64,000 nucleotides of DNA. Source: an uncultured virus (IMG/VR IMGVR_UViG_2897137741_000002). Taxonomy: Duplodnaviria > Heunggongvirae > Uroviricota > Caudoviricetes. This document shows positions 7,703-63,197 of the stretch, piece after piece (the stretch's first letter is position 1; each line of letters starts with the position of its first letter). Where the stretch lies: the IMG/VR virus record IMGVR_UViG_2897137741_000002, positions 62,001 through 126,000 of that record; one strand, given 5' to 3'. Made by a program: the position numbers and the translations under genes. Below the pieces are notes generated by a model. The model saw nothing but the letters and a program-made list of their open reading frames with translations. It ran no database searches and was not told the DNA's origin.

Positions 7703-7750
7703 GTGAATCTAAATAAAACAACAATTTTAATCAGAAAAGAGGTGTGATAG

Positions 7751-7930
7751 ATGAGTTGGGGTATATCACCAGATGCGACAAATAAAGAGAAATTGAAGGC
7801 TGAAATGGCTGATTACTTAAATGGTTTAAACTCAACAGGAGCAATAAGCTATGCAATATACAGTGAAGCATTTGATGTCTCTATGAATTTACTTGACAAA
7901 ATGTATGACTTAGGAAAGCTTGAAAAATGA
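7751..7930 (+). CDS. Hypothetical protein (59 aa, not in ORF track)
   Basis: MSWGISPDATNKEKLKAEMADYLNG...; RBS GAGGTG. Confidence 0.7.
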   Translation: MSWGISPDATNKEKLKAEMADYLNGLNSTGAISYAIYSEAFDVSMNLLDKMYDLGKLEK

Positions 7931-7948
7931 ATAGAATGTGGTGGAATT

Positions 7949-8140
7949 ATGAATACATATGTTTATTCGTTCAAGGGGTTTGATTCCGAAGCTTGTTACA
8001 CTGTTTTAGCGAAAGCTGAAAATCAAAAAGATCCGTTTGACATTATCGGGGAATGTGTTGGTTCTAGTGTAAAGCACAATATGAAAATTGATGATATTCA
8101 AGTGTTGAAATTCGATGATAATGCATTTGTTAATGATTGA
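7949..8140 (+). CDS. Hypothetical protein
   Basis: 63 aa, ends just before a repeat site. Confidence 0.6.
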   Translation: MNTYVYSFKGFDSEACYTVLAKAENQKDPFDIIGECVGSSVKHNMKIDDIQVLKFDDNAFVND

Positions 8141-8217
8141 ATCTGAATAAAACAGCAGTTTAAACCAAAATAAGTCTAGTAAGAAACAATAAACATTTAA
8201 TTCTAAGGGAAAAAGGA

Positions 8218-8523
8218 GTGTTAAACATGTACACGATTGGTCTATCGTATGACGTATCAATGGAATTGTTTTATTTGAAAAACTGGAATGGAGACATCAA
8301 AGAAGCGCTTGAAACGATTACTTTGTACGGTGATGAAAGTGTTGAGTTTGTTTTTGAAGGGAAGCCAGTTGAAACACTATATGATATTTCAAGTCTTAAA
8401 GATAAACTCGATGACTTTGAAAAGAATGATTTGTTTAGCACTTACTTCAATGAAGATCAAAAAGAATATGTTGATAAGCTATTAGAACTTTTGAAAGAAA
8501 ATTTAATCGAAGAAGACATTTAA
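8218..8523 (+). CDS. Hypothetical acidic protein
   Basis: RBS AAGGAG; start may be ATG 8227. Confidence 0.7.
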   Translation: MLNMYTIGLSYDVSMELFYLKNWNGDIKEALETITLYGDESVEFVFEGKPVETLYDISSLKDKLDDFEKNDLFSTYFNEDQKEYVDKLLELLKENLIEEDI

Positions 8524-8557
8524 ATACTTACTACAGCTTTAATGAGAGGGGTTCTAA

Positions 8558-8896
8558 GTGATGACAGTGTTAAATGAAAACAACCTTAAATTTTTATTGG
8601 ATAACGGCTTTGAACTAAAGCGGTATGAGGAGCAGGGATTAACTTTTTACACAAAAGAAATAAAAGACAACCACTCTTTGAAAAAATTAATTGAACATCA
8701 TTATGAAACTGGGGAAGATGAAGAGATTAATACAAAAGGGACTAGTTTTATCATGGAGATACAGACAAATGGGGAAACCCCTCAATGGCTTTTTACCGGT
8801 GAATACGAAAAGCTGGGTATTCTTCAAGACCAAAATCAGTTTATTGAATATATAAAAGATATCGCTAATCTAATTAGGCCAAATCTAAATAACTGA
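8558..8896 (+). CDS. Hypothetical protein
   Basis: 112 aa; stop lies inside the repeat site at 8892. Confidence 0.7.
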   Translation: MMTVLNENNLKFLLDNGFELKRYEEQGLTFYTKEIKDNHSLKKLIEHHYETGEDEEINTKGTSFIMEIQTNGETPQWLFTGEYEKLGILQDQNQFIEYIKDIANLIRPNLNN

Positions 8897-8960
8897 ATAA
8901 AACATGGATTTTAAAGTGATTTTAAGGAGGGGTCTAGACGATGTTGAAGAACCTTTTAAC

Positions 8961-9362
8961 ATGAAAGGGGTTATTAACATGCAAGTTTTAAGGATCTTTA
9001 TTGTTCATGTCTTGTCTGCGTTATCAGCTGCTGTTGTTTATGTTTTAGGCATTGATTATGATGGTTATATTCCGTACTTCTTAATAAGTGTTATTCTCTT
9101 TATCTTCTATTTAATCTTTGCTGCACCTGTTCAATATTTCTTGAATCGCACTCCAAAAAGGTTTAGCCTGAAATATTTACTCATCTACATATTCTTTTCC
9201 TTCTTAGTATGGTTAATCTTTGCTGTAACTACTGACCCAAAGTCCACCATAGACTTTCTAATGGGATATGAAATTTATTTATTTGGCATTTCATTTGGTT
9301 TAATCTTTTGGGTCTGGGACTCAGTTTTTCTGCAAAATAGGATAATGACAGCAGCTAAGTGA
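8961..9362 (+). CDS. YopD/UPF0715-like membrane protein
   Basis: Four hydrophobic segments; start 8961 or 8979. Confidence 0.65.
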   Translation: MKGVINMQVLRIFIVHVLSALSAAVVYVLGIDYDGYIPYFLISVILFIFYLIFAAPVQYFLNRTPKRFSLKYLLIYIFFSFLVWLIFAVTTDPKSTIDFLMGYEIYLFGISFGLIFWVWDSVFLQNRIMTAAK

Positions 9363-9539
9363 CTTAAGTACTCAATCCAATCTTAAGAGAGAAAAGAACC
9401 CTTATAAATCAGCTATAGATTTGACCATGAAAGCCAGATGACTATCCTTTTTAATGTTCCAACAGGTCAAGGAAAATAAAAAGCCTTGACCAATATTATA
9501 GCTTTAATGATCATTTTAAGTGATCAAAAGTAACCAGAG

Positions 9540-9776: not shown

Positions 9777-9878
9777 AAATGGTATACTAAAGTTACAAGC
9801 ATAGGAAGTAATTACAATTTTTCTAGGTCTACATAAAATCGTACTTTTATGAAAGTAGATTAAACAAGTCAGCTAAAA

Positions 9879-14160: not shown

Positions 14161-14192
14161 AGCCTTCTCACAGCATTTTGTGAGAAGGTTTT
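14161..14192 (+). terminator. Intrinsic terminator
   Basis: AGCCTTCTCACA-GCATTT-TGTGAGAAGGTTTT. Confidence 0.8.
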
Positions 14193-14221
14193 CAAATAAA
14201 ATAGGAATTTTAAAGAGAATA

Positions 14222-15481: not shown

Positions 15482-15494
15482 AGGAGGTGAGACA

Positions 15495-16517: not shown

Positions 16518-16730
16518 ATGTCAGAGCGAATAAAACAGCTATTGGTCAAACGTGGCATCACAATAGAGGAATTGTCGAGGGAGACAATGATTGATATTCA
16601 GAAATTAAACAAAATCATTGAAATGCCAGATGAATCAGATGTTACAACCATAAAGCTTATCGCTCTGGTATTGAATGTCTCTATTGATGAGTTATTGGAT
16701 GAGAAAGGAGGAGAAGATAATGCAAAATAA
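16518..16730 (+). CDS. yopO: SroC, Xre HTH
   Basis: 70 aa HTH. Confidence 0.85.
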   Translation: MSERIKQLLVKRGITIEELSRETMIDIQKLNKIIEMPDESDVTTIKLIALVLNVSIDELLDEKGGEDNAK

Positions 16731-17796
16731 AGTTAAACAATTAAAAAATTATGCGGTTTACGATGATATCGAGGGCTTTTTAATCAATAAAGATATAAGA
16801 AGTAGCTCAGGGAATTCTAACTATATGATGCCTTCATCAACTATAAGGGTGTCGAACACCAGAAAGAATTATGAAGGGGATATTAAGCAGTTCTTTAGTG
16901 TGATTAAAGGTAAAGATGTCAAAAGTTTAGTTCCCGATGATTTAGTTGTAAGTAAAAGCGAATTAAGCAACTATGTGAAGTATCTTCAGGAAAAGGGATT
17001 AGTTAATAATAGTATTAACAGAAAAATGACCTCCCTGAAGATGCTCTATACATATTTGGAGCATGATTATAAGGACTATATTGACTTGTCGGTGTTTAAT
17101 ACTGTCGAAAGGCTTAAAACAGTAACTAAAAACTGGGATAAAACAACCCAGACAGAAGCCGAAAGAATCGCTCAGGATATGTATATAAATGAAAGACAGA
17201 AACCTTTAATGAAAAAGCTGTTTGTTAAATTCGCCATCAGAACTTCTTTTCGTGTAAGTGCGATTTTGCGAGTAAGATGGAAAGACATACAGCTTGATGA
17301 AAGTACAGGCCATTATATAGTAACAGTTATTGATAAAGGATCTCAGGTTGTGTCTACAGGCATTAACCAGGTATTTTATGAGGAATTGTTGCAGCTGAAG
17401 GAAGAGGATGACAGCGAAACTGAATTGGTTTTTCAGGGGCTTTCGGAACAATCTTTACGACACTCCTTAAAAAGGTCGAAAAAAAGGTTAGGAATACCTC
17501 CTGAAAGAGAATTAGTCTTACACTCATTTAAGGGTGTAGGAATTGACTATGTCTATGAGAATTCTGGTCACGATTTACTTGCAGCAAAAGAACAAGGAAA
17601 TCATAAAAACACATTAACAACAGAGAGATATATGAGCAGAAAGATTAACATAGCGAACTCTGCTGGTGTAACAATGGATGAAAAAATCGATTTAAATCCA
17701 CTATATGAAGCAACCCAAGAGGATTTTATTAGTTTTTTTGAAAACACTGATCTTGTTACATTAAAAAAGTTTATAAAGCATGTAAATGAGCGATAA
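16720..17796 (+). CDS. yopP: SroD, tyrosine-recombinase-fold protein
   Basis: 358 aa from ATG 16720; motifs TSFRVSAIL, DKG, LHSFK, NH..TTERY. Confidence 0.85.
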   Translation: MQNKVKQLKNYAVYDDIEGFLINKDIRSSSGNSNYMMPSSTIRVSNTRKNYEGDIKQFFSVIKGKDVKSLVPDDLVVSKSELSNYVKYLQEKGLVNNSINRKMTSLKMLYTYLEHDYKDYIDLSVFNTVERLKTVTKNWDKTTQTEAERIAQDMYINERQKPLMKKLFVKFAIRTSFRVSAILRVRWKDIQLDESTGHYIVTVIDKGSQVVSTGINQVFYEELLQLKEEDDSETELVFQGLSEQSLRHSLKRSKKRLGIPPERELVLHSFKGVGIDYVYENSGHDLLAAKEQGNHKNTLTTERYMSRKINIANSAGVTMDEKIDLNPLYEATQEDFISFFENTDLVTLKKFIKHVNER

Positions 17797-21673: not shown

Positions 21674-21755
21674 ATTGTGTAATTTTCACTAAGGTAACAA
21701 AATTAAAATTAGTGGATAAAATGTAAGTTTTATCGAGATTCAGATAAGGGGGATA

Positions 21756-23575: not shown

Positions 23576-23643
23576 TCTGAGGTTACAGTCTAGATAAAAG
23601 ATGCATTTTAAAGTGAATTAGATGAAGTAAAGGAGATGAACCG

Positions 23644-24378: not shown

Positions 24379-24725
24379 TGAAAAGAACAGTTGATCTTAC
24401 TGAAAATAGAGAGTTCATGAAGATTGGAAATAGCCGAAGCAAGTCATTATTGCAAAGGTACTTAAAGAAGCGAATATACCCATGGAGCATAGAAGCAGAA
24501 GTAAGACAGAGCGACCTTTATAGTAACGGCTTATTGTTAACTGGCAACGGCTCTGAAAGAGAAAAACAAAAGGAGACAGCAGCCTTTGAAAAGACGTGTC
24601 ATTGTTGTGGTAAGTGGGACTCATTCCATATGACGATAACTAAATCAACTCTGTGTAAAAGTTGCGAAGAAATGCTTGATCACAGTGTTGTGGGCAACGT
24701 CCCTTGGAGAAAGCAGTTTGGATAA
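24375..24725 (+). CDS. Zn-binding hypothetical protein (YoqA-like)
   Basis: CHCC..CKSC; stop inside repeat site. Confidence 0.7.
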   Translation: MMKRTVDLTENREFMKIGNSRSKSLLQRYLKKRIYPWSIEAEVRQSDLYSNGLLLTGNGSEREKQKETAAFEKTCHCCGKWDSFHMTITKSTLCKSCEEMLDHSVVGNVPWRKQFG

Positions 24726-24791
24726 AAGTAAAATTTTAAAGAGATTCAAAAGAGTTGAATTAATTAAAAAACAATTTAAGGGGAGATACAA

Positions 24792-25490: not shown

Positions 25491-25602
25491 ATTAAAGGCG
25501 ATGATACACAAAGAACAGCAGACAGTAGTTATTACTGGATAAGCAGAGGCAATTAGAAAGCTAATTAAAATTGGAGATTTAATGAGAATCGGGGGAATAA
25601 AA

Positions 25603-25860
25603 ATGGAGAAAATGAACCTGCTAAAAGAAATAACAATATTTGATTTAAATAAAATCAAACCTGGCACAAAAGTTCAAGTAACTTGGTATAAAGGAACAGA
25701 GATGGAGTATACACATAATGGCGAAGTTATCATCAATCACGGAGAAAAGTTTTACTATAATTTCGTTGATAAAGAAGGCTATGTGGGCCATTGTCATGTA
25801 AATGCAATTGATCTGAAGAACTATCCAGACAGTCTAATTGTTGAGATTAAATCTAAATAA
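25603..25860 (+). CDS. Hypothetical protein
   Basis: Start after GGGGGA; ends ...SK inside repeat site. Confidence 0.65.
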   Translation: MEKMNLLKEITIFDLNKIKPGTKVQVTWYKGTEMEYTHNGEVIINHGEKFYYNFVDKEGYVGHCHVNAIDLKNYPDSLIVEIKSK

Positions 25861-25892
25861 AAAGACTGTTTTAAAGAGAGGGAGTTGTATTA

Positions 25893-26285
25893 ATGGGAAT
25901 GTATACAGAATTGGTATGTGCTTTTGAGCTAATTAAGGAAACACCAAGTCACATTATTGAAACGTTGGAGTTTATGAGCGGTCAACGAGATGAGCATCCA
26001 GATGAGCTGCCAGATCATAAACTATTTTCGGGAGGAAGTAGATGGAAATGGATGCTTCAATCTGATAGCTATTATTTTGATGGAAAAACTCACAGCGAAA
26101 TTGTAAACGATACTCTTGTAGGTGGGCGCTATGTGACAATTAGATGCAATCTAAAAAACTATGATAATGAGATTGAGAGTTTTATTGAGTGGATTTCACC
26201 GTTTATTTATAAAAAGGATGAGGAATATTTTATTGGCTACAAACGATATGAAGAGGATAAAGAGCCTGAATTGATTTTTGTTTAA
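25893..26285 (+). CDS. Hypothetical protein bracketed by repeat sites
   Basis: 130 aa MGMYTELVCAFEL...; sites at 25852 and 26277. Confidence 0.8.
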   Translation: MGMYTELVCAFELIKETPSHIIETLEFMSGQRDEHPDELPDHKLFSGGSRWKWMLQSDSYYFDGKTHSEIVNDTLVGGRYVTIRCNLKNYDNEIESFIEWISPFIYKKDEEYFIGYKRYEEDKEPELIFV

Positions 26286-26473
26286 AAGGATTACTTTATG
26301 CAGAATGGAGGGCAATAGGATAGGATTCATCAAATACGTATTTGAAATCGCCTGGTTTAACTTAGTTTGGTTTAAATGGCACCTTGGAGCGGACATAAGC
26401 ATTTTTGACAGCTGCGGATGGAATACATATAAACGGATAAAGAATAAAAATAAAATAAGTGGAGGGTATTCAA

Positions 26474-27193: not shown

Positions 27194-27484
27194 ATGAACA
27201 CTTATGTAGTCGATGACAGCAAGTATAAATGTATTTATGCGGGAACTGAGAAAGCAGCTGCTTTTAATAATGAATTTGAAAACGGTACAAGAGTAAGAGT
27301 TTGGTTCGAAGGCCGTCACATAAAAACGTTTGAGAAAGAACAAAGAGAAGTATGTGGAGTAGGAGAATGGATTCTGAAGTATGATGCTGCTACTGAATTG
27401 CAAAAGGAAGTAGATCGTTTGGAAAAGACATATTTCAAGAAGAAAGAGTTGTTAGATACTATTAGGCAAGCTGAACAAGTCTAG
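27194..27484 (+). CDS. Hypothetical protein bracketed by repeat sites
   Basis: 96 aa; sites at 27159 and 27480. Confidence 0.75.
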
Positions 27485-27515
27485 ATAAAAGATAGTTTTT
27501 ATAGGGAGGTAACAG

Positions 27516-27951: not shown

Positions 27952-28190
27952 TTATTTCACCTCCGAGACAAAAATGTCCAGTCTCTTTTATATGGCAAGC
28001 GTATGACAACCTGCTTGCAGTAATAAAGGTGAAATGAATTTTGGAAATTTAAAAAGGTTTAGAGAAAAAAGTCATTTAAAATAAACTATTTATTTTAATT
28101 AAAGGGGGTAACGAAAACTAATTGATCCATGTACTAAATTTTCATTTGATTTTTAATGGCTAGGCTCTAAGGAGTTATGTAACGGAGAGA

Positions 28191-29814: not shown

Positions 29815-30036
29815 GTGATGCAGCAAACAGTAGAGGTTAAAGAAGTTGAAGTGTTGATCAGGGGAATCTGGAGGAAGAAAAAGTTCACTGATATTCAAAA
29901 GGGGCAAACCTTTAAGATTGAGGAGAATGGGAGAGTAAAGAAGTACATAGCAAGAACAAATCCTTATTGGGATGACATGTATGAGACTTACATAATTGAT
30001 TTGTTGGATAAAAATAAAATTAGAAGATCTAGATAA
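29815..30036 (+). CDS. yoqX: Hypothetical protein
   Basis: 73 aa; ends ...SR inside repeat site. Confidence 0.7.
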
Positions 30037-30085
30037 AACAGAGATTTTATAAAGATAAAAATAAAATTAAAAAAGGGGAATTTAA

Positions 30086-31288
30086 ATGAGTTATCAATTT
30101 GAAAAGAATAAACTGTATGCATATTTAGGTGAAGAGTTAGTTGAAGCACTTAAAAGGAATGAAGCTATTATTGCAGGTGGGGCAATTGCAAGTCTATTTA
30201 ATAATAAAGAGATAAATGATGTGGATATCTATTTTAGAAGTGATAAAAAAGCATGTTCATTCTTAGAAGAGTGTTGGAATAGCAATGTCTATGTAACGTC
30301 ACACACTAAAAAAGCCACGCTATTTATCAAAAAAAGACTAAAGCTACAAATGATCCACTTTAAATTTTTCTCTGATGCTGAGTCAATTTTCAATACATTT
30401 GATTTTACAGTCTGCATGGGAGCTTTTGATTTTAAGACCGAAGCTTTTACTCTACATGAAGATTTTTTGAAACATAACTCGCAGAGAATTTTAAAGTTTA
30501 ATAGACAAACTGCTTTTCCAATTGTCTCATTGTTAAGAGTGCAAAAATACACAGATAAAGAATACACAATTTCTAAGCCAGAATTCATTCGTATTGTGCT
30601 AACATGCATGGACTTAACCATTAATACATATGAAGAATTGAAAGATCAAATGGGAGGTATGTATGGGATAAACTATGACAAATTGTTCGAAGACGAAAAA
30701 GATGAAGACTTTAACCTACGAGAAGCTGTAGATAAAATTGCTGACATGGTTTTAGACGAAGATTACTTTAAAGAGCCGGTTAATTTAGAGTTTAATGACT
30801 TAGACGATCTTTTAAATGACATTAATAAGAGTCCAGTTATGACGCTGAAGATTAATGATGATCAGTACAGAATTGGTCTTGATGGGTTTCTAAAAGAATC
30901 TGTATCAGCGCCATGTACTGAAATTAAATTAGACACAAAGGATTTCTTCGATAAAACTAATTTCTATAAATTTGTAAGAAAACAGAACGGAAAATTGACG
31001 AGCTTCTATGACAAGAACTTTGAATATGTGATTGGGGAAGAAGCTAAAGCGGAAGGAGTAATAGATAGTTGGTCGAACAGCGGAAAGTTATTTTTTAATG
31101 AAAAGGCAGCGATCGAACAATCAACCTACTATGGAAAGGAAGACGGAGTACTTATTGAGGTGAAGATAAAAGAAAAGGATTTTGTAGATGCGGATAATGG
31201 TAAAGTTGAGGCCGCAGCATGTTATGTAATTAGAGAAGTTTCGAAAGACGAATGGAAAGAATACATAAGTGCCAATAACTCTAAATAA
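30086..31288 (+). CDS. Pol-beta-superfamily nucleotidyltransferase-like protein
   Basis: IIAGGAIASL...NDVDIYF and FDFTVC motifs; bracketed by repeat sites. Confidence 0.7.
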   Translation: MSYQFEKNKLYAYLGEELVEALKRNEAIIAGGAIASLFNNKEINDVDIYFRSDKKACSFLEECWNSNVYVTSHTKKATLFIKKRLKLQMIHFKFFSDAESIFNTFDFTVCMGAFDFKTEAFTLHEDFLKHNSQRILKFNRQTAFPIVSLLRVQKYTDKEYTISKPEFIRIVLTCMDLTINTYEELKDQMGGMYGINYDKLFEDEKDEDFNLREAVDKIADMVLDEDYFKEPVNLEFNDLDDLLNDINKSPVMTLKINDDQYRIGLDGFLKESVSAPCTEIKLDTKDFFDKTNFYKFVRKQNGKLTSFYDKNFEYVIGEEAKAEGVIDSWSNSGKLFFNEKAAIEQSTYYGKEDGVLIEVKIKEKDFVDADNGKVEAAACYVIREVSKDEWKEYISANNSK

Positions 31289-31324
31289 AAACGATATTTT
31301 AACCAGAATCCAGGAGGTAATGAA

Positions 31325-31720
31325 ATGAACTTATATGAAATTATGCTAGAACACTTTGCACCCAAGGGAAGTGAGCGGGGTATCTGTACATACGTGCTTG
31401 CTCAATCTGATGAAGAGGTATATGAATGGTTGAAAACTGATCCAAGCCTATCTGACGGCAGGGTAGTCTATACCCCATATCAAGACAACGAAGAAGACGG
31501 TAAAACATATGCAATTTATAATCAGAGCTTTGATATTGTTGGTCATGAAAAATATAAAGATCGAATGATTCGATTAAAAGGTGAGTTGAATGATGAAGTT
31601 GAACTAACCGATCTTTATTACGGAATGACCTTAGTCGGGTGGCGTATGGTGAAATCGGATATTTCAACGGAACAAATTGAATTGTTAAAAGATACTGGCA
31701 TCAGTATGGAGTTTGCATAA
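31325..31720 (+). CDS. yoqY: Hypothetical protein
   Basis: 131 aa, synteny. Confidence 0.7.
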   Translation: MNLYEIMLEHFAPKGSERGICTYVLAQSDEEVYEWLKTDPSLSDGRVVYTPYQDNEEDGKTYAIYNQSFDIVGHEKYKDRMIRLKGELNDEVELTDLYYGMTLVGWRMVKSDISTEQIELLKDTGISMEFA

Positions 31721-31817
31721 AAGTAATTTTTTATTCGGATAAGGGGGTGGTACTAATGTGATTGCTTAAAAGATGAGAAAAAGAATAAAAATAAAATTAT
31801 ATAAGGAGAGTTGTTAA

Positions 31818-38437: not shown

Positions 38438-39952
38438 TTGCTACAAGACAAACAGGCAATAATTCAAGTTTTAGGGAGCATTTTAAAAGATCCCACAATC
38501 TTGTCAGAGAGCAATAAATATAAGATAACTTCGGATGATTTTCCTTCAAGGTTTCATTCAATATTATTTTTTGCCATGAGCAACCTATTTCATCAAGGAA
38601 CTGAAGTATTGAATGACGTTGAAATAGATGGATATCTAAAGGATTACGATATTCAATATAAAATTTTCCATGATAATAAGGGTCTTGAATATATAGAAAA
38701 AATACAAGAGTTGGCAGTTGTCGAAAACTTTGATTACCACTATAAAAGATTAAAAAAGTTTAGTCTGCTTAGAGAAATGGATGGCTTGGGATTCGATATT
38801 AAGGAAATATATGATGAATCTCTGATTGACCCAAAAGAACAAGAAAAGATGCAAGAACAGTTTGATAAGAAGTCGATTGATGAAATTTTGACAGCTTATG
38901 AAATGAAGATTGTAGACATAAAAGAAAAATTCAGAACTTCATCTGAAAGTGTGGGAATCCAGGGTGGAGAAGGTATTAATGAATTATTGGATTCATTCGA
39001 AGAGTCGCCGGATATTGGAGTTCCATTAAATAGCGAAATGCTTACTTCAATTTTTCGGGGATCACGGAAGAAAAAGTTCTATCTGCGCTCAAGTATTACA
39101 GGTGGCGGTAAAACAAGAAACATGGTAGCTGACGCTTGTCGCTTAAGTGCAACTGAACTTTATGATCCTAAAAAGAAGGAATGGGTATCAAACCCATGGA
39201 GTGAAAGTTCTAAAGTTATTTCAACAGAAATGATGGCCGAAGAATTGCAAAGTTTAGCACTTGCCTACATTAGTGGTGTAGAAGAGAAAAAAATCCTTAG
39301 AAATACAATAAATGAACAAGAAAAACAACTTGTGCGTAAGGCAGCTAAAGTTCTTCAAGAGTCTAACATATGGTTCGAACATCTGCCTGATTTTAATATT
39401 CAGGAGATTGAAAGAACAATTGAAAAGAACGTCATTAAAAACAATGTAGAGTACGTTTATTTCGATTATATTCACTCATCAGTAACCATTTTTTCAGAGA
39501 TGAGCAAAAAAAGTGGTGTCAACTTGAGGGAAGACCAAATTCTTTTACTAATGTCGGATAAGTTAAAAGGCTTATGTAACAAATACGATGTCTATATGAT
39601 GAGTGCAACTCAGCTGAATGGTGATTGGAAAGAAGCATGGTTAAAAGGACAAGTAATAGATGCTTCTTACTTGAGAGGAAGTAAGGCCATCGCAGATAAA
39701 ACAGATGCTGCAATGATAATTCTTCCTTTAAGTAAAAAAGAGAAGGATGCAATTGATCCAATCTTAAAAGAAGGATTTTATCCAGAGCCAAATTTTGTTA
39801 CACATGTATTTAAAAATAGAGGAAATGAGTATGACAAAGTTAAAGTCTTTTCCCATATCAATATGGGCAACATGCGGATTAAGGACTGTTTCACAACAAA
39901 TCTTGACAATGAACTAATCACAGTTGAGAAATTGAATATAAAAGCAGGATGA
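38438..39952 (+). CDS. yorI: DnaB-like replicative helicase
   Basis: TGGGKT, STEM, FDYI, ATQLN. Confidence 0.9.
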   Translation: MLQDKQAIIQVLGSILKDPTILSESNKYKITSDDFPSRFHSILFFAMSNLFHQGTEVLNDVEIDGYLKDYDIQYKIFHDNKGLEYIEKIQELAVVENFDYHYKRLKKFSLLREMDGLGFDIKEIYDESLIDPKEQEKMQEQFDKKSIDEILTAYEMKIVDIKEKFRTSSESVGIQGGEGINELLDSFEESPDIGVPLNSEMLTSIFRGSRKKKFYLRSSITGGGKTRNMVADACRLSATELYDPKKKEWVSNPWSESSKVISTEMMAEELQSLALAYISGVEEKKILRNTINEQEKQLVRKAAKVLQESNIWFEHLPDFNIQEIERTIEKNVIKNNVEYVYFDYIHSSVTIFSEMSKKSGVNLREDQILLLMSDKLKGLCNKYDVYMMSATQLNGDWKEAWLKGQVIDASYLRGSKAIADKTDAAMIILPLSKKEKDAIDPILKEGFYPEPNFVTHVFKNRGNEYDKVKVFSHINMGNMRIKDCFTTNLDNELITVEKLNIKAG

Positions 39953-46786: not shown

Positions 46787-47509
46787 ATGAAAATTTTCAA
46801 AAAACTTATAGACAAATATAAAAAATATGTATATCATAGAGTTAACGAAATGACACTTTTTGCTACAATTGGTTTGTTAGGAGTAGGGCTCGTTTATAGC
46901 GCTAAAAACTTGTATACACATCAAGACAATCAAGTCTCAATAAAAGAGTCATTTTATCTAAATAAAAAAGAGGTGAGGCAAAAACTTATTCATGAAATTG
47001 ATGTTCCAAGAATCCTTCCCAGGCTAAAGAGTGAGGAAGAAAAGCAGGCTGAAAGTAGAAAAAAGTATCTTAATGCTACGATTACATATCTAACAGAAGA
47101 AAATAAAAAAGCAGCAAAACATACAAAAACAAAAAAAGTGCAAAAAATTAATAAAAAGAGAAGTGAAGATAAACCAGCTTCAAAAAGTACTAATACCAAG
47201 GCAGTGAAGAGTCATGAAGTTGTTGCCACTGCTTACACAGCATTTTGTTCTACAGGTTGCACAGGGAAAACAAGAACCGGCTATGATGTATCAAACACAT
47301 CCTATTACAATGGAAAAAGAATAATCGCTGTTGATCCAGAAGTAATTCCTTTATATTCATTAGTTCAAGTTACATATGAAGGGAATAGCTTTCAAGCATA
47401 TGCAATAGATACAGGAGGAGATATTAAAAACAATCGTATTGATATTCTGATGGACAGTGAGCAAGAAGCAAATGCATTTGGTCGTAAAAATGTAAGAGTG
47501 AGCTGGTAA
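46787..47509 (+). CDS. yorM: 3D-domain (peptidoglycan-active) membrane-anchored protein
   Basis: ATAY..IAVDP..DTGG..IDI. Confidence 0.85.
   Translation: MKIFKKLIDKYKKYVYHRVNEMTLFATIGLLGVGLVYSAKNLYTHQDNQVSIKESFYLNKKEVRQKLIHEIDVPRILPRLKSEEEKQAESRKKYLNATITYLTEENKKAAKHTKTKKVQKINKKRSEDKPASKSTNTKAVKSHEVVATAYTAFCSTGCTGKTRTGYDVSNTSYYNGKRIIAVDPEVIPLYSLVQVTYEGNSFQAYAIDTGGDIKNNRIDILMDSEQEANAFGRKNVRVSW
46809..46837 (+). promoter_or_regulatory. SigA promoter with SPBRE-like spacer inside the 5' end of yorM
   Basis: TAGACA-AATATAAAAAATATGTA-TATCAT. Confidence 0.7.
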
Positions 47510-49290: not shown

Positions 49291-49414
49291 AAGAATTACC
49301 TCCCAGGTTTTGATTGTGATACAACTCTAGTCTAGCATGGAAAATATTTGAAATGTGTGAAGTGTTTGTGAAACTGATTAAAATATCTCTTTTATTAGGA
49401 AGGGTGGATAAGGG

Positions 49415-49681
49415 TTGCTTAAATTAAAATTTAGAAATCAAACACTGGAATTGCGTAGAAAAATGTCCTTACAATTACACCGTTTATTAGAAGACATGAC
49501 AGCTTGGTCATTTAATGAAAATGAAGCTCAAAAATATATTGATGAATATGAATTAGAGTTAGTTGAGAAGAGTGTAGACAATAAATTTAAGCTTCAAATA
49601 GTAGATAAGAATAAAAATATTTGGGGCGAATTAAAACCCAAAGAGCCAGGGTACATTGGATATTTTGTACAGACTGAATAA
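49415..49681 (+). CDS. Hypothetical protein bracketed by repeat sites
   Basis: 88 aa; sites at 49373 and 49673. Confidence 0.7.
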   Translation: MLKLKFRNQTLELRRKMSLQLHRLLEDMTAWSFNENEAQKYIDEYELELVEKSVDNKFKLQIVDKNKNIWGELKPKEPGYIGYFVQTE

Positions 49682-49729
49682 ATGATCAATTTTATTTAGA
49701 GTAAAAATAAAATATATGGAGGTTGTTTA

Positions 49730-51049
49730 TTGGGTAAACTACGTGTAATGAGTCTTTTTAGTGGGATCGGTGCATTTGAAGCTGCACTAAGAAACATTGG
49801 GGTTGGTTATGAGCTGGTTGGTTTTAGTGAGATTGATAAATATGCCGTCAAATCTTTTTGTGCAATTCACAACGTTGATGAGCAATTAAATTTTGGAGAT
49901 GTAAGCAAGATTGATAAGAAAAAACTACCTGAATTTGATCTTTTAGTTGGAGGATCTCCTTGTCAAAGCTTTAGTGTAGCCGGCCATCGAAAGGGATTTG
50001 AAGATACAAGAGGGACATTGTTTTTTCAATACGTTGAGACTCTTAAGGAAAAGCAACCAAAGTTTTTTGTTTTTGAAAATGTTAAAGGGTTGATCAACCA
50101 TGATAAAGGAAATACATTAAATGTTATGGCTGAAGCTTTCAGTGAAGTTGGGTACAGAATTGACCTAGAGCTGCTTAATTCAAAATTCTTTAATGTTCCA
50201 CAAAATAGGGAGCGACTTTACATAATTGGAATTAGAGAAGATTTAATTAAAAATGAAGAATGGTCTTTGGATTTTAAAAGAAAGGATATACTTCAAAAAG
50301 GGAAACAGAGATTGGTAGAATTAGATATTAAAAGCTTTAATTTTAGATGGACAGCTCAATCGGCTGCTACGAAGAGGCTAAAAGATTTATTAGAAGAATA
50401 CGTTGATGAAAAGTACTACTTGAATGAAGATAAAACAAACAGTTTGATCAAAGAGTTGTCTACAAGTCGACTTAATGAAAATCTTACTGTTGAGCAAGTA
50501 GGTAACATTAATCCCTCTGGTAATGGAATGAATGGAAATGTTTATAATTCATCTGGATTAAGCCCCACAATTACCACTAATAAAGGAGAGGGACTGAAAA
50601 TTGCAGTTGAGTACTCCAGAAAAAGCGGGCTTGGACGAGAACTTGCTGTATCTCATACGCTTTCTGCTTCTGACTGGAGAGGATTGAATAGGAACCAAAA
50701 ACAAAATGCAGTTGTTGAGGTAAGGCCAGTATTAACCCCAGAAAGGGGGGAGAAGCGACAAAATGGAAGAAGATTTAAAGATGACGGTGAACCAGCATTT
50801 ACAGTAAACACAATTGACAGACACGGGGTAGCGGTTGGAGAGTATCCAAAATACAGAATTAGAAGATTAACACCGTTAGAGTGCTTTAGGCTACAGGCTT
50901 TTGATGACGAAGATTTTGAAAAAGCTTTTGCTGCGGGAATAAGTAACTCACAATTATATAAGCAAGCCGGTAATTCAATTACTGTAACTGTGCTTGAGTC
51001 AATATTCAAGGAATTAATACATACATACGTTAATAAAGAATCTGAATAA
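49730..51049 (+). CDS. mtbP: Multispecific DNA (cytosine-5) methyltransferase, SPR-type
   Basis: FSGIG, GSPCQ, ENV, QNRER, QAGNS; 439 aa with tandem target-recognition domains. Confidence 0.93.
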   Translation: MGKLRVMSLFSGIGAFEAALRNIGVGYELVGFSEIDKYAVKSFCAIHNVDEQLNFGDVSKIDKKKLPEFDLLVGGSPCQSFSVAGHRKGFEDTRGTLFFQYVETLKEKQPKFFVFENVKGLINHDKGNTLNVMAEAFSEVGYRIDLELLNSKFFNVPQNRERLYIIGIREDLIKNEEWSLDFKRKDILQKGKQRLVELDIKSFNFRWTAQSAATKRLKDLLEEYVDEKYYLNEDKTNSLIKELSTSRLNENLTVEQVGNINPSGNGMNGNVYNSSGLSPTITTNKGEGLKIAVEYSRKSGLGRELAVSHTLSASDWRGLNRNQKQNAVVEVRPVLTPERGEKRQNGRRFKDDGEPAFTVNTIDRHGVAVGEYPKYRIRRLTPLECFRLQAFDDEDFEKAFAAGISNSQLYKQAGNSITVTVLESIFKELIHTYVNKESE

Positions 51050-51092
51050 AATTTGTCTTTTAAACAAATGTAAAATAAGAGGAGTGGATTGA

Positions 51093-52208: not shown

Positions 52209-52421
52209 ATGAATCATATATGTGACATCTGTAAAGAGTATATAAGCGGAAAAACAATTTGTCTAAGAATCAGCGATGAAAAAACTTATGTAGACTTCAA
52301 TTGTTGTGAAGGTTGTGCAAAGGGTTATTCCGATAAAGTGAAAAATGAATGCAGCAATTTAAGTGTTAAGAAGACATTAGAACATTTAGGATTAAATAAC
52401 AAATGCAAAATAAGAGGATAA
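52209..52421 (+). CDS. yorZ: Cys-rich small protein
   Basis: 70 aa; stop inside repeat site. Confidence 0.7.
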   Translation: MNHICDICKEYISGKTICLRISDEKTYVDFNCCEGCAKGYSDKVKNECSNLSVKKTLEHLGLNNKCKIRG

Positions 52422-52513
52422 AATATTCCTTTTATCGTGATTTGTTTTCAAAAGTAAAAACGCCATAAATAATTCTTATGGCGTCTGTCGAACAGGGAGG
52501 TGCTTATACCAAA

Positions 52514-53612: not shown

Positions 53613-53781
53613 CGTTCTTGAAATCGTAGGTCTTTTGTTGATTGGAATAGTATCACTAGATATATATGGAACTAAAAAGGGAATAAAACCTCAAATCGCT
53701 TTAGTATTATTAGTTCTAGCTGTTTTAGCTGGGTTGTCATTCTTAATCAGTTTAGTTTTATTAATTATCAATATTATCTAA
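53596..53781 (+). CDS. Small membrane protein
   Basis: Hydrophobic; probable TTG start after GGAGGA; stop inside repeat site. Confidence 0.55.
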   Translation: MQLVINVLEIVGLLLIGIVSLDIYGTKKGIKPQIALVLLVLAVLAGLSFLISLVLLIINII

Positions 53782-53823
53782 ATAAAATTCAATTTTTAAA
53801 GAGTCTTATAAGGAGGTGAATAA

Positions 53824-54678: not shown

Positions 54679-54957
54679 ATGGCCAAACTCTTGATCGAAT
54701 ACGAAGGTACATACGATCTGAAAGAAAGTGTATGTGAAAACAAAATAATGTCTGGTAGAGCTTTAGTACGGGATTTAGGGGATTTTGTTACATATGGTTT
54801 AACACTTAATCAAAATCCAAAGGTCAATATTAAGAGACTTGATGATAAGGGTTGTGTGATTCAAGAAATAAATGATGTAAGCTTGTCAATCTCAGAGAAT
54901 GAAAACAAGCAAAAAATCTTAGACAATTTGGCAGCCTTGCTAAGAAAATCACTTTAA
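54679..54957 (+). CDS. Hypothetical protein
   Basis: ATG after GGTGGAGG; stop inside repeat site. Confidence 0.65.
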   Translation: MAKLLIEYEGTYDLKESVCENKIMSGRALVRDLGDFVTYGLTLNQNPKVNIKRLDDKGCVIQEINDVSLSISENENKQKILDNLAALLRKSL

Positions 54958-54983
54958 AAGTTTTATTTTAAACAAAAGAGGAG

Positions 54984-55268
54984 ATGGAAAGCATGGATTA
55001 TGCGAAAGTCAAAGGGAAAAATGTAGTCATTACTCTACCGATCGATTTGTTAGAAGTGGCATTTAACAATAACCCAAACAACTGGGATGAATCAATTAAG
55101 GTTAAATACAAAAGACAATTTGCTAAAGGGTTTGCTGAAAAGATTAATGAAACCTCAACAAATAGTGAAACCGGTTTAACTGTATTTCAGGAAGTAATTG
55201 ACGCAATATTTGATGAGATGTTAGAAGAAGCTCCAAATTATATTAAAGTCCCTCAAGAGGATTATTGA
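54984..55268 (+). CDS. Hypothetical protein bracketed by repeat sites
   Basis: 94 aa; sites at 54949 and 55264. Confidence 0.7.
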   Translation: MESMDYAKVKGKNVVITLPIDLLEVAFNNNPNNWDESIKVKYKRQFAKGFAEKINETSTNSETGLTVFQEVIDAIFDEMLEEAPNYIKVPQEDY

Positions 55269-55305
55269 ATAAAAGGATGATTTTAAAGAAAGAGGAGGGA
55301 AGCAC

Positions 55306-56089: not shown

Positions 56090-56429
56090 CAAAGGAAGAT
56101 ACAGAAATTTATTCAGAAACAATTGGAGGACGAATAGATATCGGAAAATAACTATAGGCCGTCAGTTCCTAGATGGGTTGGCGATATACTAGAGCTAGAC
56201 AAGAAAAGAAGACAAAATCAGTACAGAGGCTCACTAACGTCAGGTCAAGAGAAGAAGGACTGGGATGAGTGGAAACGTAGGTATTCAAGGAAATTAAAGT
56301 ACGCAAGATTGAACGGATGGACGATCGAAGAAGAGTAACGATTTTTTAGGGAGGACGAATAGATACGGCTCGATTCTAGATAAAATCACAGCTTTATTCA
56401 AAATAAAAAAAATAATAAGGAGATGTAAA

Positions 56430-60460: not shown

Positions 60461-61268
60461 TATTTAATAGTCCCTTTTGTCGGCAACGGCAAATGTGAAC
60501 CTCTCTAATTGCTGGAAAATCCTTATTAGGACAATCAGCAGCGAAGCTATGCGAACCCAAAGGAGGTGAAAATGATAAGGAAAGAAGTCGAAGAAGCACC
60601 TTGGTGGATAACGGAAACGGGAGTTATCATATCAAAAAAAATAAAGAAACCAAGAAAGACATTTATTACTCCACATGGCTATGAAATGATAGGATACACG
60701 CATCCGAAAAAAGGAACACAGAACTATTTAGTACATAGGTTAGTCGCAAAATATTTTATTCATGATATACCAAAAGGAATGTTTGTAAACCACATAGATG
60801 GAAATAAACTAAACAACCACGTTCGGAACTTAGAAATAGTTACACCTAAAGAAAATACTCTACATGCAATGAAAATTGGATTAATGTCAGGACAACCTGG
60901 AGAAAGTAATTCAATGTCAAAGCTCACTAATATGGAGGCAACAAATTTAATCTATGATTTGATTGCTGGAATGAACAATGTTGAAGCTGGTGAAAAATAC
61001 AGCCTTCATCCTCGTTACGTTAGTCTAATTCGACATAAAAGAAGATGGAAGACTTTATGGGATCGCATAGAACGTTCAACGACTATCGCATAGGCGGCGA
61101 AATTCCGCAAAACGAGTAGGGCGCAAGCTATTGGCGTGGGTGAGAACCCCTTAAATCGAAACGGGAGGCATCCTACAGGGATGATGATATAGTCTGCTCC
61201 TTACGGTAACGTAAGGCGGTTGCGACAGGGCAACGAACCGATAGTAGCGAACTCGGTTGAACTAAGGG
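60461..61268 (+). mobile_element. Group I intron in nrdF (808 nt) encoding an HNH endonuclease
   Basis: P1 GAU/UAUU..AAUAGUC with a U-G pair, terminal G, GATATAGTCT element. Confidence 0.9.
60572..61093 (+). CDS. yosQ: Intron-encoded HNH homing endonuclease
   Basis: [24 protein letters not shown]. Confidence 0.92.
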
Positions 61269-61673
61269 TATTAGAGACGAAGCGATACATGGAACATACA
61301 TCGGATTGCTAGCTCAAGAGATATATAAGAACCAAACACCACAGAAGCAAACGGAATTGTATGAATGGGCATTAAGCTTACTGCAGGAGCTTTACGAAAA
61401 TGAATTAGAGTATACAGAAGATGTCTATGATCAAGTTGGCTTAGCTCCAGATGTTAAGAAATTCATCAGATACAATGCTAATAAAGCGTTAAACAACCTG
61501 GGATTCGATCATCAGTTCGAGGAAGAAGACGTTAACCCAATTGTTATTAATGGATTGAGCACTAAAACTAAGTCTCATGACTTCTTTTCAACTAAAGGAA
61601 ATGGTTATAAAAAAGCGACAGTTGAGCCTTTAAAAGATTCTGATTTCATTTTTACTGAGAAAGGGTGTATTCA

Positions 61674-61916
61674 ATGAGAGTAATTAAATTAGAGCAGCCT
61701 AATTGTAATCCATGTAAAATGGTGTCCAATTACTTAGAGCAAGCAAATATTCAATTTGAGACAGTTGACGTTACACAGGAACCAGAAGTGGCAGCTAGAT
61801 TTGGTGTTATGGGAGTTCCGGTAACCGTTTTGCTGAGTGATCAAGGAGAGGAAGTAAAACGAAGTATTGGTTTTAAGCCTGATGAACTTGATGAGTTACT
61901 AAAGGAATTACGATAA
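61674..61916 (+). CDS. yosR: Thioredoxin/NrdH-like redoxin
   Basis: CNPC motif. Confidence 0.88.
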
Positions 61917-61958
61917 AAGGGTAATTTTAAACAAACTTAAATTTAAAGGAGCAAATAA

Positions 61959-62321
61959 ATGTATTTCATTGAAAATCAGGAAGGATTAATCGGAAAAGAA
62001 GTTGCTTATGTTTGGGCAAATCAATTTTGTGAGCAAACAACGATTATTACTAAAGATGGAGGCGTGTTTATGGTTTGTCAACAATCTGACTGGGATGATG
62101 GCTATGAGACCAGAATATTATACCCGCATGAAGCTAAGAAGATATTACATCCTCTGAAAAAAGACTTGCATGACAAAGGAGTGATTGATGAAACAGAGTG
62201 GGAAGAGTACGAGAATGAGCTAAAAAAGAAACAAGATGCTGAAAGAGAAAAGTATCTCAAAGAGAAAGAAGAACGTGATCGTAAACTATATGAAGAGTTG
62301 AGGGCAAAGTTCGATCAATAA
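61959..62321 (+). CDS. Hypothetical protein
   Basis: 120 aa, begins right after repeat site 61908. Confidence 0.75.
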   Translation: MYFIENQEGLIGKEVAYVWANQFCEQTTIITKDGGVFMVCQQSDWDDGYETRILYPHEAKKILHPLKKDLHDKGVIDETEWEEYENELKKKQDAEREKYLKEKEERDRKLYEELRAKFDQ

Positions 62322-62392
62322 TGAACAGTTTGTTTAACTGAAGAATGCAATACAAGAACTTACATACCAAAAACTAAAGGAGTTAATACATA

Positions 62393-62821
62393 ATGCAAAT
62401 TAAAATCAAGTATCTAGATGAAACACAAACAAGAATCAGCAAAATTGAGCAGGGAGACTGGATTGATCTTCGTGCAGCTGAAGATGTAGTGATCAAAAAA
62501 GATGAGTTTAAACTTGTCCCATTAGGTGTGGCTATGGAATTGCCTGAAGGTTATGAAGCTCATGTCGTTCCTCGTTCGAGTACGTATAAGAACTTTGGTG
62601 TGATTCAAACAAACTCAATGGGTGTTATCGATGAGTCTTATAAGGGAGACAACGATTTTTGGTTCTTTCCTGCTTATGCATTGCGTGATACTGAAATTAA
62701 GAAAGATGATCGTATCTGTCAGTTTAGAATCATGAAGAAAATGCCGGCGGTTGAATTGGTTGAAGTAGACTATCTAGGCAACGATGACCGAGGTGGGCAC
62801 GGTTCAACTGGAACGAAATAA
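62393..62821 (+). CDS. yosS: Trimeric dUTPase
   Basis: [25 protein letters not shown]. Confidence 0.93.
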
Positions 62822-62908
62822 TTTACCATGTAGACAGTCTCTTTTTGGACTGAAACTTTTATAAAGCATTAACGTAGTACTTTATAAAGGGAATAAGGAG
62901 GTTTCTTC

Positions 62909-63091
62909 ATGGGGGTGAATTTCTTTAATGCAGAGTTAAAGTGCTCAAACTGCGGTAAAGTACTAAATTCAGGTGATGAAATAGAGGTACATATTACCCT
63001 GCCAAGTCAAAAGAAAATGCCTGTTGGTATCTTAGACAAAGTATTAAGTAAACACTCTGATAAGGTTTATTGTAAGAATTGTAGTGAGTAA
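62909..63091 (+). CDS. Zn-ribbon small protein
   Basis: CSNC..CKNC; RBS AAGGAGG; terminator 63101-63134. Confidence 0.7.
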   Translation: MGVNFFNAELKCSNCGKVLNSGDEIEVHITLPSQKKMPVGILDKVLSKHSDKVYCKNCSE

Positions 63092-63197
63092 GTTTTCAAT
63101 GTTATGAGGATGCTCCTAGAGGTTTCCTCATAACAAATATCAATTTAAATTAGAAAATAAAGAATACTTTTATCTAAAATCAATAAGGAGGAAAGAG

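Follow-up and report, generated by a model that had tools for sequence, protein, structure and literature searches.

What joins unrelated accessory genes in SPbeta-like Bacillus phages, and how is their order kept when the genes themselves change? The question is raised by a 64,000-nucleotide stretch of an uncultured virus genome (IMG/VR record IMGVR_UViG_2897137741_000002), here called the window, in which a 28-bp imperfect palindrome recurs at gene junctions. A first-pass annotation, made from the letters of the window alone, had read these palindromes as the borders of exchangeable gene cassettes. The window comprises bases 62001-126000 of a 137,586-bp phage genome (single contig) of SPbeta-like type: positions 20000-44000 of the window match 45 Bacillus phage records, of which SPbetaL6/L7, Goe13 and SPBc2 cover 77-83% of that region at 96-97% identity. 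Gene names are taken from the SPBc2 record. We compared the genome with 11 whole relatives, giving a close set of 12 genomes, and with a distant set of 14 prophage loci reached through homologues of the phage protein YopP at 43-72% identity. The palindromes are real dyad sites, they carry conserved addresses and they are joints of cassette exchange, conclusions that we hold with good confidence.

A dyad motif of fixed geometry

The window contains 23 copies of the core pattern TAAAA-N6-TTTTA, where 100 dinucleotide-preserving shuffles gave 1.05 on average and never more than 4; this average agrees with the rough chance estimate of one match per 64 kb made in the first-pass annotation. The six sites given there as examples (7708, 23589, 25852, 30028, 31280 and 49673) are present exactly as written. 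When the full 28-mer pattern is searched with up to 3 mismatches, 37 strand matches are found in the window where 0.46 are expected. The 6-bp spacing had been singled out as constant, and enrichment is indeed confined to it in the studied genome and in all 11 relatives. Across the 137.6-kb genome, TAAAA-Nk-TTTTA matches 34 times at k=6 and 0-4 times at each other k in 0-14, and the swapped order TTTTA-Nk-TAAAA gives 0-7 matches; the relatives hold 30-37 cores at N6 compared with 0-4 at six other spacings, and SPBc2 holds 34 cores but 2 matches to the reversed pattern.

A symmetrised position-weight matrix (PWM) was built from the core matches, with a score of at least 11 as the threshold for a site. 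At this threshold the genome has 43 sites, 28 of them in the window; at a score of at least 12 it has 42, compared with 0-4 in three shuffles. A 29th window copy at 63151-63178 is degenerate, its A-run being one base short, and accounts for the end coordinate of the earlier annotation. The logo of the 23 core sites reads TCT-RR-ATAAAA, six unconstrained bases, TTTTA-W-NN-AGA, an architecture of two inverted 11-bp arms around a 6-bp centre (11-6-11). The geometry of dif is likewise 11-6-11. From their sequence, the elements look like two-fold-symmetric dyad sites of the protein-binding type. The first-pass annotation knew of no description of them, and none was found in the literature searched, which excludes the original SPbeta genome paper (Lazarevic 1999). 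The annotations of the SPBc2 record include ordinary terminator stem-loops and two palindromes of other kinds, but none of the dyad sites. A 22-base pattern scan of viral contigs gave, among the matches listed, mostly single chance matches.

Spacers are tied to position

The six central bases differ from site to site within a genome and recur between genomes. We counted 75 distinct spacers over the 12 genomes, 14 of which are present in all 12, and, after correction for the different start points of the records, they come in the same order in every genome. Within a genome no spacer is repeated; since by our arithmetic only about 0.2 duplicates are expected by chance, this absence is given no weight.

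The spacer is tied to its position and to neither neighbouring cassette. ATAAAA-CAACAA-TTTTA is found with about 8 left and about 7 right unrelated flanks in nine genomes, and left and right flanks meet in many combinations at AGACTG. The outer TCT..AGA triplets vary between flanks yet keep the consensus, from which it follows that the triplets travel with the cassettes. Pairs of sites with both flanks conserved (466 in all) differ by 1.57% in the spacer, compared with 0.64-1.14% for the inner arms and 1.6-3.5% for the flanks. A special constraint on the spacer was not seen among these close relatives, a comparison with little power at such divergence, and the deep sharing of spacers is accordingly put down to continual exchange that carries the core along or to selection for compatibility.

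Sites as junctions of genome mosaicism

Breakpoints between relatives are enriched at the sites. When the ends of homology blocks (BLAST alignments) were compared between the studied genome and its 11 relatives, 46 of 319 unique ends lay within 14 bp of a site centre, where 2.9 would be expected if ends were uniform. Left ends accumulate at offsets 1 and 5-7 of the site, right ends at its offset 22. These are the edges of ATAAAA-spacer-TTTTA, so that the spacer falls inside the block whichever side the homology lies. Gaps between genes tell the same story, with a breakpoint in 33 of 37 gaps that hold a site and in 68 of 172 that do not (Fisher p=3e-8), or in 25 of 26 and 37 of 94, respectively, for plus/plus gaps. 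In another strain (run X2), contigs diverge from the window at 8144, 9840 and 14219, all at or in sites, and a replacement joint runs from 25881, at the AGACTG site; other loose ends in this run lie away from sites, at 9758, 15914 and 26463.

Pairs of sites with the same spacer in different genomes show what is shared at such junctions. Taking 80% likeness over 60 bp as the cut, 770 pairs have neither flank alike, 334 share the right flank only, 338 the left only and 463 both. Lowering the cut to 65% leaves 455 distinct pairs without an alike flank, in which the shared exact stretch has a median of 19 bp (interquartile range 17-22). The core of about 19 bp is thus often the sole sequence common to two phages at a junction. 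Left and right flanks reassort, in at least three of the four possible combinations, at 24 of 59 shared addresses, as judged by a crude clustering in which some diverged homologues may be split.

The sites behave differently where homology is continuous. Along the genome, the closest relative switches at 49 inferred points. Of the 32 switch intervals within homologous DNA, 3 overlap a site (0.98 expected; P about 0.08), and of the 17 at homology edges, 5 do (0.64 expected; P about 5e-4). With 29 of 32 crossovers off-site, ordinary homologous recombination dominates where homology exists.

Slots and their cargo

Neighbouring addresses border slots, 74 of which are common to at least two genomes; 29 of the 74 hold at least two unrelated contents. 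Six unrelated contents of 289-835 bp occupy the slot CAACAA|CAGCAG in eight genomes, and another six, of 270-369 bp, the slot GTTTTA|GGATGA in ten. Four unrelated contents were found in TATCTC|GATCAA (six genomes) and again in GATCAA|TTTGTC (ten genomes), which is filled in the window by a C5 cytosine DNA methylase (49730-51049; Pfam E=2e-93). Slots can also be large: the lysogeny module (aimR, aimP, yopM-yopR with yopP and mrpR among them, yopS-yopV) occupies one slot of 7.5 kb, 14219-21710, bounded by TAGGAA and TGTAAG, without an internal site and common to 7 genomes.

For one slot, the anti-Gabija locus, the biology of the cargo is known. Gad2 lies between CAGAGA and ACGATA sites in both the window and SPbetaL6, and in SPbetaL1 the same two sites enclose Gad1 and a small open reading frame (ORF). 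SPBc2 (SPbeta) has one hybrid site, with a left arm of the 30028 type and the spacer and right arm of the 31280 type. A second hybrid, at 110914 in SPbetaL1, joins the ACGATA spacer to the right arm and flank of the GTAATT site. The junction falls in the left inner arm in SPBc2 and in the right inner arm in SPbetaL1. The gad2 gene has been reported to lie 'at the same locus' as gad1 (10.1101/2023.05.01.538930), a locus to which the dyad sites give exact borders. The Gad2 homologue itself matches no Pfam family, which is the rule for this cargo: 21 of 24 cassette proteins tested from the window are without one, the exceptions being an ApeA-type HEPN protein, the C5 DNA methylase and a UPF0715-family protein. 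The first of these, a 489-residue protein encoded at 9900-11369 after the TCGTAC site, has an ApeA N-terminal domain (E=1e-27) and an ApeA-like HEPN domain (4e-22), and is a candidate abortive-infection or defence gene by its domain matches.

The first-pass annotation went on to propose an integron- or pdif-like platform. In such a scheme each cassette would carry one site, and circles cut out between flanking sites would be re-inserted at any other site by a phage recombinase or by the host XerCD homologues RipX/CodV. The Gad2 slot does look like an insertion, with two flanking sites here and one hybrid site in SPBc2, and the 11-6-11 geometry equals that of dif; as in integron attC arrays and Acinetobacter pdif modules, short sites bound accessory genes. 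Those modules, however, move with their own site, whereas the dyad site stays while the contents change: the spacer remains with its position (CAACAA, with its about 8 left and 7 right flanks), and the spacer order is the same everywhere, where free re-insertion would scramble it. Pure indels were informative here. We found 78 distinct ones, of which 27 have at least one end at a site, 25 of these at one end and just 2 from site to site; the remaining 51 have neither end at a site. Nor is there an attI-type platform or a common promoter, the sites being spread over about 130 kb on both gene strands and yopP having no adjoining site, and attC-type folded single strands are unsupported. This part of the earlier proposal does not suit the main pattern, and we consider it very unlikely.

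Shared spacers in distant prophage lineages

A search of genome contigs with a single YopP protein returned no relatives and an alignment-based scan returned one locus. The 14 distant loci of our set carry the N6 core 4-11 times per 11-21 kb, compared with 0-3 at other spacings, and 79 of their 137 PWM sites bear a spacer from the list of 75. For the 11 loci furthest from the studied genome, where YopP is 43-47% identical and only 145-1842 bp of 11-21 kb can be aligned to it, 50 of 100 sites carry known spacers against 1.8 expected. In locus L226 taken by itself the count is 6 of 11, with P about 2e-8; allowing five-fold for base composition brings this to 2e-4.

Cassettes have also crossed between these lineages. 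Stretches 93-97% identical between distant loci and B. subtilis phages begin at cores. L232 7192-7908 matches BUCT082 at 94% and spans a TTGAAG site to an AGACTG site; L230 matches SPbetaL1 at 93% from 20472, beginning at a GATAGT site; L234 matches Goe11 at 96.6% from 16350, beginning at an AGACTG site; and L235 matches SPbetaL3 at 94.5% from 19074, beginning at its own TTGAAG site. Overall, 32 of 152 cross-lineage block ends lie within 10 bp of a site. At those cores whose adjoining DNA is unrelated, or only about 70-75% alike, it is the core that must have served for the crossover. The addresses TTCTAA and TGTTGA, which lie near the right end of the studied genome (130364-130736), occur in L226, a B. 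pumilus prophage, at 3120-3462, about 7 kb upstream of yopP; from this different placement the pair appears to have moved as a unit between lineages.

The claim that the sites delimit exchangeable cassettes of one or a few genes thus holds, on the block ends, on the 29 slots with unrelated contents and on these cross-lineage cassettes. The comparisons show that exchange within short identical cores joins unrelated neighbouring genes. What results is an ordered row of slots. Phages trade the cargo of a slot, one or a few accessory genes (Gad1 or Gad2, for instance), without loss of gene order, of the stop codon upstream or of the ribosome-binding site downstream.

Placement of the sites between genes

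By our heuristic gene calls, 37 of the 43 PWM sites lie in an intergenic gap or within 12 bp of one, and nearly all lie at gene 3' ends. Four of the 34 exact cores fall inside an ORF of at least 450 bp, among them the core at 46941, which is probably intergenic because a ribosome-binding site and ATG come after it. Sites separate co-directional genes on both strands; outside the window they are found between minus-strand late genes (genome positions 42103, 46242, 52007 and 59296). The upstream stop codon begins within the left arm at 15 of 28 window sites, as the TAA of ATAAAA in 11 and within T-R-R in 4. Unrelated proteins thus end in codons that the motif dictates, which shows the left arm to be constrained as DNA. 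From the end of the site to the next start codon the median distance is 25.5 bp (n=32, whole genome).

The sites are not evenly spread but cluster in variable regions. The first-pass annotation had listed several regions as free of them: this stands for yonO, for 14219-21710 (aimR to yopV) and for 56403-61907 (nrd), but not for yorE-yorR, where sites lie at 46935 (strong) and 39759 (weak).

On the transcribed strand of co-directional genes the sites follow a stop codon and precede the ribosome-binding site of the next gene, a position that would also suit an RNA hairpin for processing, stability or translation coupling, like the RNase III sites between T7 early genes. We looked for such a hairpin, or a cruciform, and rejected it. 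Complementarity between outer arms is 2.77 of 6, compared with 2.86 for arms taken from two different sites (p=0.75, n=43), and 231 distinct arm pairs show no covariation (p=0.99). Position 6 pairs with position 23 in only 23 of 43 sites, and the 28-mers fold as RNA at a mean of -1.7 kcal/mol against -0.8 for shuffles. With no covariation and a weak fold, each arm evidently fits the consensus alone, as half-sites of a dimeric protein do. A search of Rfam, moreover, matched no family at any site, and loop conservation per position across distant phages has no RNA rationale. We give an RNA element next to no credence.

A purely regulatory operator present in many copies, similar to the stoperators of mycobacteriophages, is a stronger contender. 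A phage protein bound there would silence or organise transcription, and the overlap with junctions would be incidental, both being intergenic. Like stoperators, the dyad sites occur in many copies in short intergenic regions, often over stop codons; some sites in conserved late or replication regions are free of breakpoints (46935 in the window, 46242 and 52007 in the genome), and 40% of the gaps without a site are junctions too. What an operator leaves unexplained is that breakpoints sit at the core edges to the base and not just anywhere in the gap, that junctions are so much more frequent in gaps with a site (33/37 compared with 68/172), that sites cluster in variable regions, and that identical cores stand between unrelated flanks in 455 distinct pairs. 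An operator's spacer, furthermore, need not be conserved, whereas 50 of 100 very distant sites keep their hexamers, and the dyad symmetry is unlike the asymmetric, transcription-oriented stoperators. We therefore consider a purely regulatory role unlikely.

The dyad site was also considered as a form of SPBRE, the operator of the SPbeta repressor MrpR, described as a 15-bp motif in ten promoter regions (PMC10516654). A shared 15-mer, AAAWAATATGTATAT, is present at 14229, 15920, 35498, 46820 and 21444 on the plus strand and at 4042 on the minus strand, upstream of aimR, yopM, yorE, yorM, yopV and yonP, respectively. By its match to the promoter regions we infer that this 15-mer is the published operator. 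It differs from the dyad site in sequence and overlaps no copy of it, so that identity of the two elements was rejected, in agreement with the first-pass annotation. At aimR, the 15-mer begins 11 bp past the dyad site 14191-14218.

A sigma-A-like promoter match (TTGACA, 17 bases, GATAAT) at 35391-35419 overlaps the site at 35402, whose spacer and core supply the -10 hexamer.

Possible mechanisms of exchange

The explanation that we put first, tentatively and at a little short of even confidence, is short-patch homologous exchange at protein-bound linkers. The central 18-19 bp or so (ATAAAA, the position-specific spacer and TTTTAW) would act as addressed linkers at gene junctions, and, the spacer being conserved and particular to each position, pairing of two SPbeta-like genomes would be confined to corresponding positions. 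Recombination would be homology-dependent and of short patch, carried out by a Sak4-type annealase, a RecJ-like nuclease and/or host functions, and the use of linkers would parallel that of the promoter early stem-loops (PeSLs) of T4-type phages. The site may then serve primarily for binding by a phage protein, which could be YopP in a DNA-binding role like that of MrpR, and the shuffling of cassettes would be a by-product of the cores being the sole sequence that unrelated cassettes share. Exchange based on homology is favoured by the off-site crossovers (29/32), by hybrid junctions in either inner arm and by the precedent of the PeSLs.

Several observations weigh against this explanation. 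Homologous recombination usually needs a stretch of identity at least as long as the roughly 19 bp shared here. A pure homology model offers no reason for the shared palindromic frame, the fixed 6-bp gap or the outer triplets unless the sites have a separate binding function, and the identity of spacers across lineages whose core proteins are about 45% identical would, we infer, need selection or homogenisation by exchange. About 80% of homology-block ends lie away from sites, which makes the sites one route of mosaicism among several. The gap statistics are limited by gene calls that were our own heuristic. No Rfam family was matched at the sites, and in window 21000-36000 neither promoter-like matches (46 compared with 55.5 in shuffles) nor terminator-like matches (3 compared with 6.9) are in excess. 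In chromatin affinity purification sequencing (ChAP-seq) of MrpR, the ten reported peaks are all at SPBRE promoters and none is at a dyad site (PMC10516654).

The alternative is that a recombinase cuts the sites, and the candidate is YopP. It matches Pfam Phage_integrase (PF00589, E=1.9e-10), has an N-terminal SAM-like domain and is encoded in every SPbeta-like locus examined, at 43-100% identity. Residues R178, K206, H268, K271, H295 and Y304 are invariant across homologues at 45-66% identity and are kept in homologues down to 43-47%; we tentatively take them to be the catalytic set (R-K-H-R-H/W-Y) with Lys in place of the second Arg, a mapping made by spacing and by XerD numbering. YopP is described as the product of a core gene with a XerC-type integrase domain and is listed without an assigned function (PMC8612738, PMC10516654), and integration of SPbeta is ascribed to the serine recombinase SprA (PMC8612738). 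MrpR, encoded two genes downstream of yopP within the same operon (yopMNOPQR), is described as having a recombinase fold without catalysis (PMC10516654). Between yopP and mrpR lies yopQ (window 17903-19285), whose product matches Pfam DndB, a DNA-sulfur modification-associated family (E=7e-16), and has been called ParB_N/Srx-like (PMC8612738); YopQ could be a partner of YopP or of MrpR.

A YopP dimer would bind the 11-bp arms and swap strands over the 6-bp spacer, and only sites of the same address are predicted to recombine. The roughly 40 sites of a genome would be mutually inert and two events would swap a cassette, as in recombinase-mediated cassette exchange with heterospecific lox/FRT sites. 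For a tyrosine recombinase to act, the spacers of the two partner sites must be the same. Such a spacer-identity rule would explain directly why spacers are position-specific, why genomes are strictly collinear and why no spacer is repeated within one, although the last is also the chance expectation (about 0.2 duplicates). It would further explain in-register exchange, the stability of some 40 direct repeats per genome and the transfer of cassettes across lineages over about 19 shared base pairs. The sites have the expected form, with inverted, independently conserved 11-bp arms around a non-conserved 6-bp spacer and with outer triplets that are conserved despite unrelated cassettes. YopP, for its part, has the Phage_integrase and SAM-like domains and an invariant residue set, is encoded in all loci examined and is free of an integration role, SprA doing that work. 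The whole family, however, has Lys at the second catalytic Arg position (by our spacing-based mapping), and the neighbouring, paralogue-like MrpR has lost catalysis. The hybrid sites cut both ways: their junctions lie at spacer/arm boundaries, but they join different spacers, which canonical spacer-homology rules forbid. Junctions seen in the comparisons fall inside the identical core, as site-specific and homologous exchange would both have it. Crossovers in homologous DNA, moreover, are not focused on sites (3/32 against 0.98, P about 0.08), and the prior is lowered further in that we know of no natural precedent for about 40 heterospecific sites on one replicon. A natural cassette-exchange system of this kind, with YopP acting on some 40 heterospecific sites that have lineage-conserved 6-bp crossover regions, therefore seems to us possible but doubtful, and we keep short-patch homologous exchange at protein-bound linkers as our first choice.

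Comparison with known systems

The PeSLs of T4-type phages are exchange points between unrelated sequences by homologous recombination (PMC2839356, PMC4122927). The dyad sites resemble them as short conserved intergenic motifs concentrated in variable ('hyperplastic') regions, in having indel and replacement junctions between close relatives within the motif, and in a cargo of mostly small genes of unknown function. PeSLs, however, are units of promoter and terminator, whereas the dyad sites have no promoter or terminator signal and no stem covariation. PeSL copies also recombine with each other and give mini-circles, whereas dyad sites exchange in register between genomes, and only the latter have a fixed 11-6-11 dyad with a conserved 6-bp address for each copy.

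With dif/XerCD, loxP/Cre and FRT/Flp, a class of sites whose inverted arms of about 11-13 bp surround a centre of 6-8 bp, the dyad sites share two inverted arms and a 6-bp centre, and, as in those systems and in engineered cassette exchange, the centre varies between sites and is identical between exchanging partners. A gene of the tyrosine-recombinase family, yopP, is again present in every genome examined; the difference is that the candidate YopP has Lys where the second catalytic Arg would be expected, if our mapping is right.

Stoperators, of which L5 has 24 and Bxb1 has 34 (PMC3029335), are known from cluster A mycobacteriophages, which are likewise temperate phages with tens of motif copies in short intergenic regions near stops. 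As described there, stoperators are 13-bp, asymmetric, transcription-oriented sites bound by the immunity repressor and without a variable centre, and the published peaks of the SPbeta repressor MrpR are at SPBRE only. SPBRE likewise recurs in this phage and, according to the published description, is the target of a recombinase-fold protein from the yopP operon; it differs in length (15 bp), in its location in promoter regions and in its sequence, and none of its inferred copies overlaps a dyad site.

SPbeta serves as a model of temperate phages, and anti-defence genes proven by experiment have come from its relatives. Should the map of about 75 addresses hold, it would give a coordinate system for accessory, defence and anti-defence cargo in any SPbeta-like prophage and would make the mosaic joining of unrelated genes at gene borders testable in a tractable host. 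Involvement of a recombinase would give YopP a function and provide a natural set of orthogonal recombination sites. Were YopP the agent, any two phages of the group, such as a prophage and an incoming phage, could trade accessory and anti-defence genes one slot at a time; they would need no homology in the flanks, and their own genomes would suffer neither scrambling nor deletion.

Site list and further features of the window

The 29 dyad sites of the window are collected in Table 1 with the two genes discussed above. 

Table 1. Dyad sites, yopP and the Gad2 homologue in the window. Offsets are positions of homology-block ends within the site; fractions are genomes of the close set that carry the spacer, unless otherwise stated.
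Feature	Position	Strand	Spacer	PWM score	Remarks
Dyad site	7708..7735		CAACAA	26.2	9/12
Dyad site	8142..8169		CAGCAG	18.4	right core TTTAA; 9/12
Dyad site	8892..8919		CATGGA	20.6	TGA stop of upstream ORF within left arm
Dyad site	9828..9855		TCGTAC	18.2	block right ends at offsets 22-24 in 6 relatives
Dyad site	14191..14218		TAGGAA	22.7	upstream of aimR; block left ends at offsets 4-7 in 7 relatives; six left-flank classes vs one right
yopP, orphan tyrosine-recombinase-family gene	16720..17796	+			putative site-binding/cutting protein
Dyad site	21711..21738		TGTAAG	21.9	12/12; spacer also in loci L226-L228, L230, L231, L238 (YopP 45-63% identical)
Dyad site	23589..23616		GATGCA	23.9	10/12; unrelated flanks
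Dyad site	24717..24744		GTAAAA	25.3	12/12; all four left/right flank combinations
Weak dyad site, marginal	25560..25587		TTGGAG	12.2	2/12
Dyad site	25852..25879		AGACTG	22.7	11/12; reassorted flanks; also in distant loci
Dyad site	26277..26304		GGATTA	18.4	right core CTTTA; 6/12; 10/14 distant loci
Dyad site	27480..27507		GATAGT	24.0	12/12; block right ends at offset 22 in 6 relatives; identical core between unrelated flanks
Dyad site	28076..28103		TATTTA	15.1	left core ATAAAC; 8/12
Dyad site, left border of Gad2 slot	30028..30055		CAGAGA	25.2	3/12
Gad2 (anti-Gabija) homologue, 400 aa	30086..31288	+			396/400 identical to SPbetaL6 coding sequence annotated Gad2
Dyad site, right border of Gad2 slot	31280..31307		ACGATA	26.5	8/12
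Dyad site	31712..31739		GTAATT	22.5	
Dyad site	35402..35429		TGATAA	20.7	upstream of yorE; five left-flank classes vs one right
Weak site inside yorI helicase gene	39759..39786		GAAGGA	15.4	no breakpoints; may be a chance or relic copy
Dyad site, yorL/yorM junction	46935..46962		GAGTCA	27.5	highest score in window; no breakpoints; spacer variants AAGTCA, GAATCA in relatives
Dyad site	49373..49400		TATCTC	22.6	
Dyad site	49673..49700		GATCAA	18.6	left core ATAAAT; 12/12
Dyad site	51041..51068		TTTGTC	26.6	block left ends at offsets 0-1 in 6 relatives
Dyad site	52413..52440		TATTCC	18.5	11/12; overlapped by a closest-relative switch interval
Dyad site	53777..53804		TTCAAT	21.4	12/12
Dyad site	54949..54976		GTTTTA	22.1	
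Dyad site	55264..55291		GGATGA	20.7	11/12; block left ends at offsets 1-7
Dyad site	56375..56402		TCACAG	20.6	right core CTTTA; block left ends at offset 1 in 4 relatives
Dyad site	61908..61935		GGGTAA	21.6	12/12
Degenerate site	63151..63178		GAATAC	below threshold	relatives keep intact ATAAAA-GAATAC-TTTTAT

Ribo-seq reads from run X24 cover aimR-yopR only, at about 1-3x depth, and runs X21 and X22 gave 0 reads. A second short repeat, AAAAATAAAATTA, is present in 9 copies with at most one mismatch, against 2.35 expected, including copies at 18020, 31787 and 56966. Exact copies at 30010-30022 and 30057-30069 bracket the dyad site at 30028, and a similar string comes after the TCGGTC site in most relatives. 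Two RNA families were matched elsewhere in the window. The SR6 antitoxin RNA of Rfam (5082-5185, minus strand, 127.8 bits) implies an adjoining yonT-type toxin/antisense pair, and a group I intron (RF00028, 94.1 bits) lies at 57808-58060 on the plus strand, in the ribonucleotide-reductase region.

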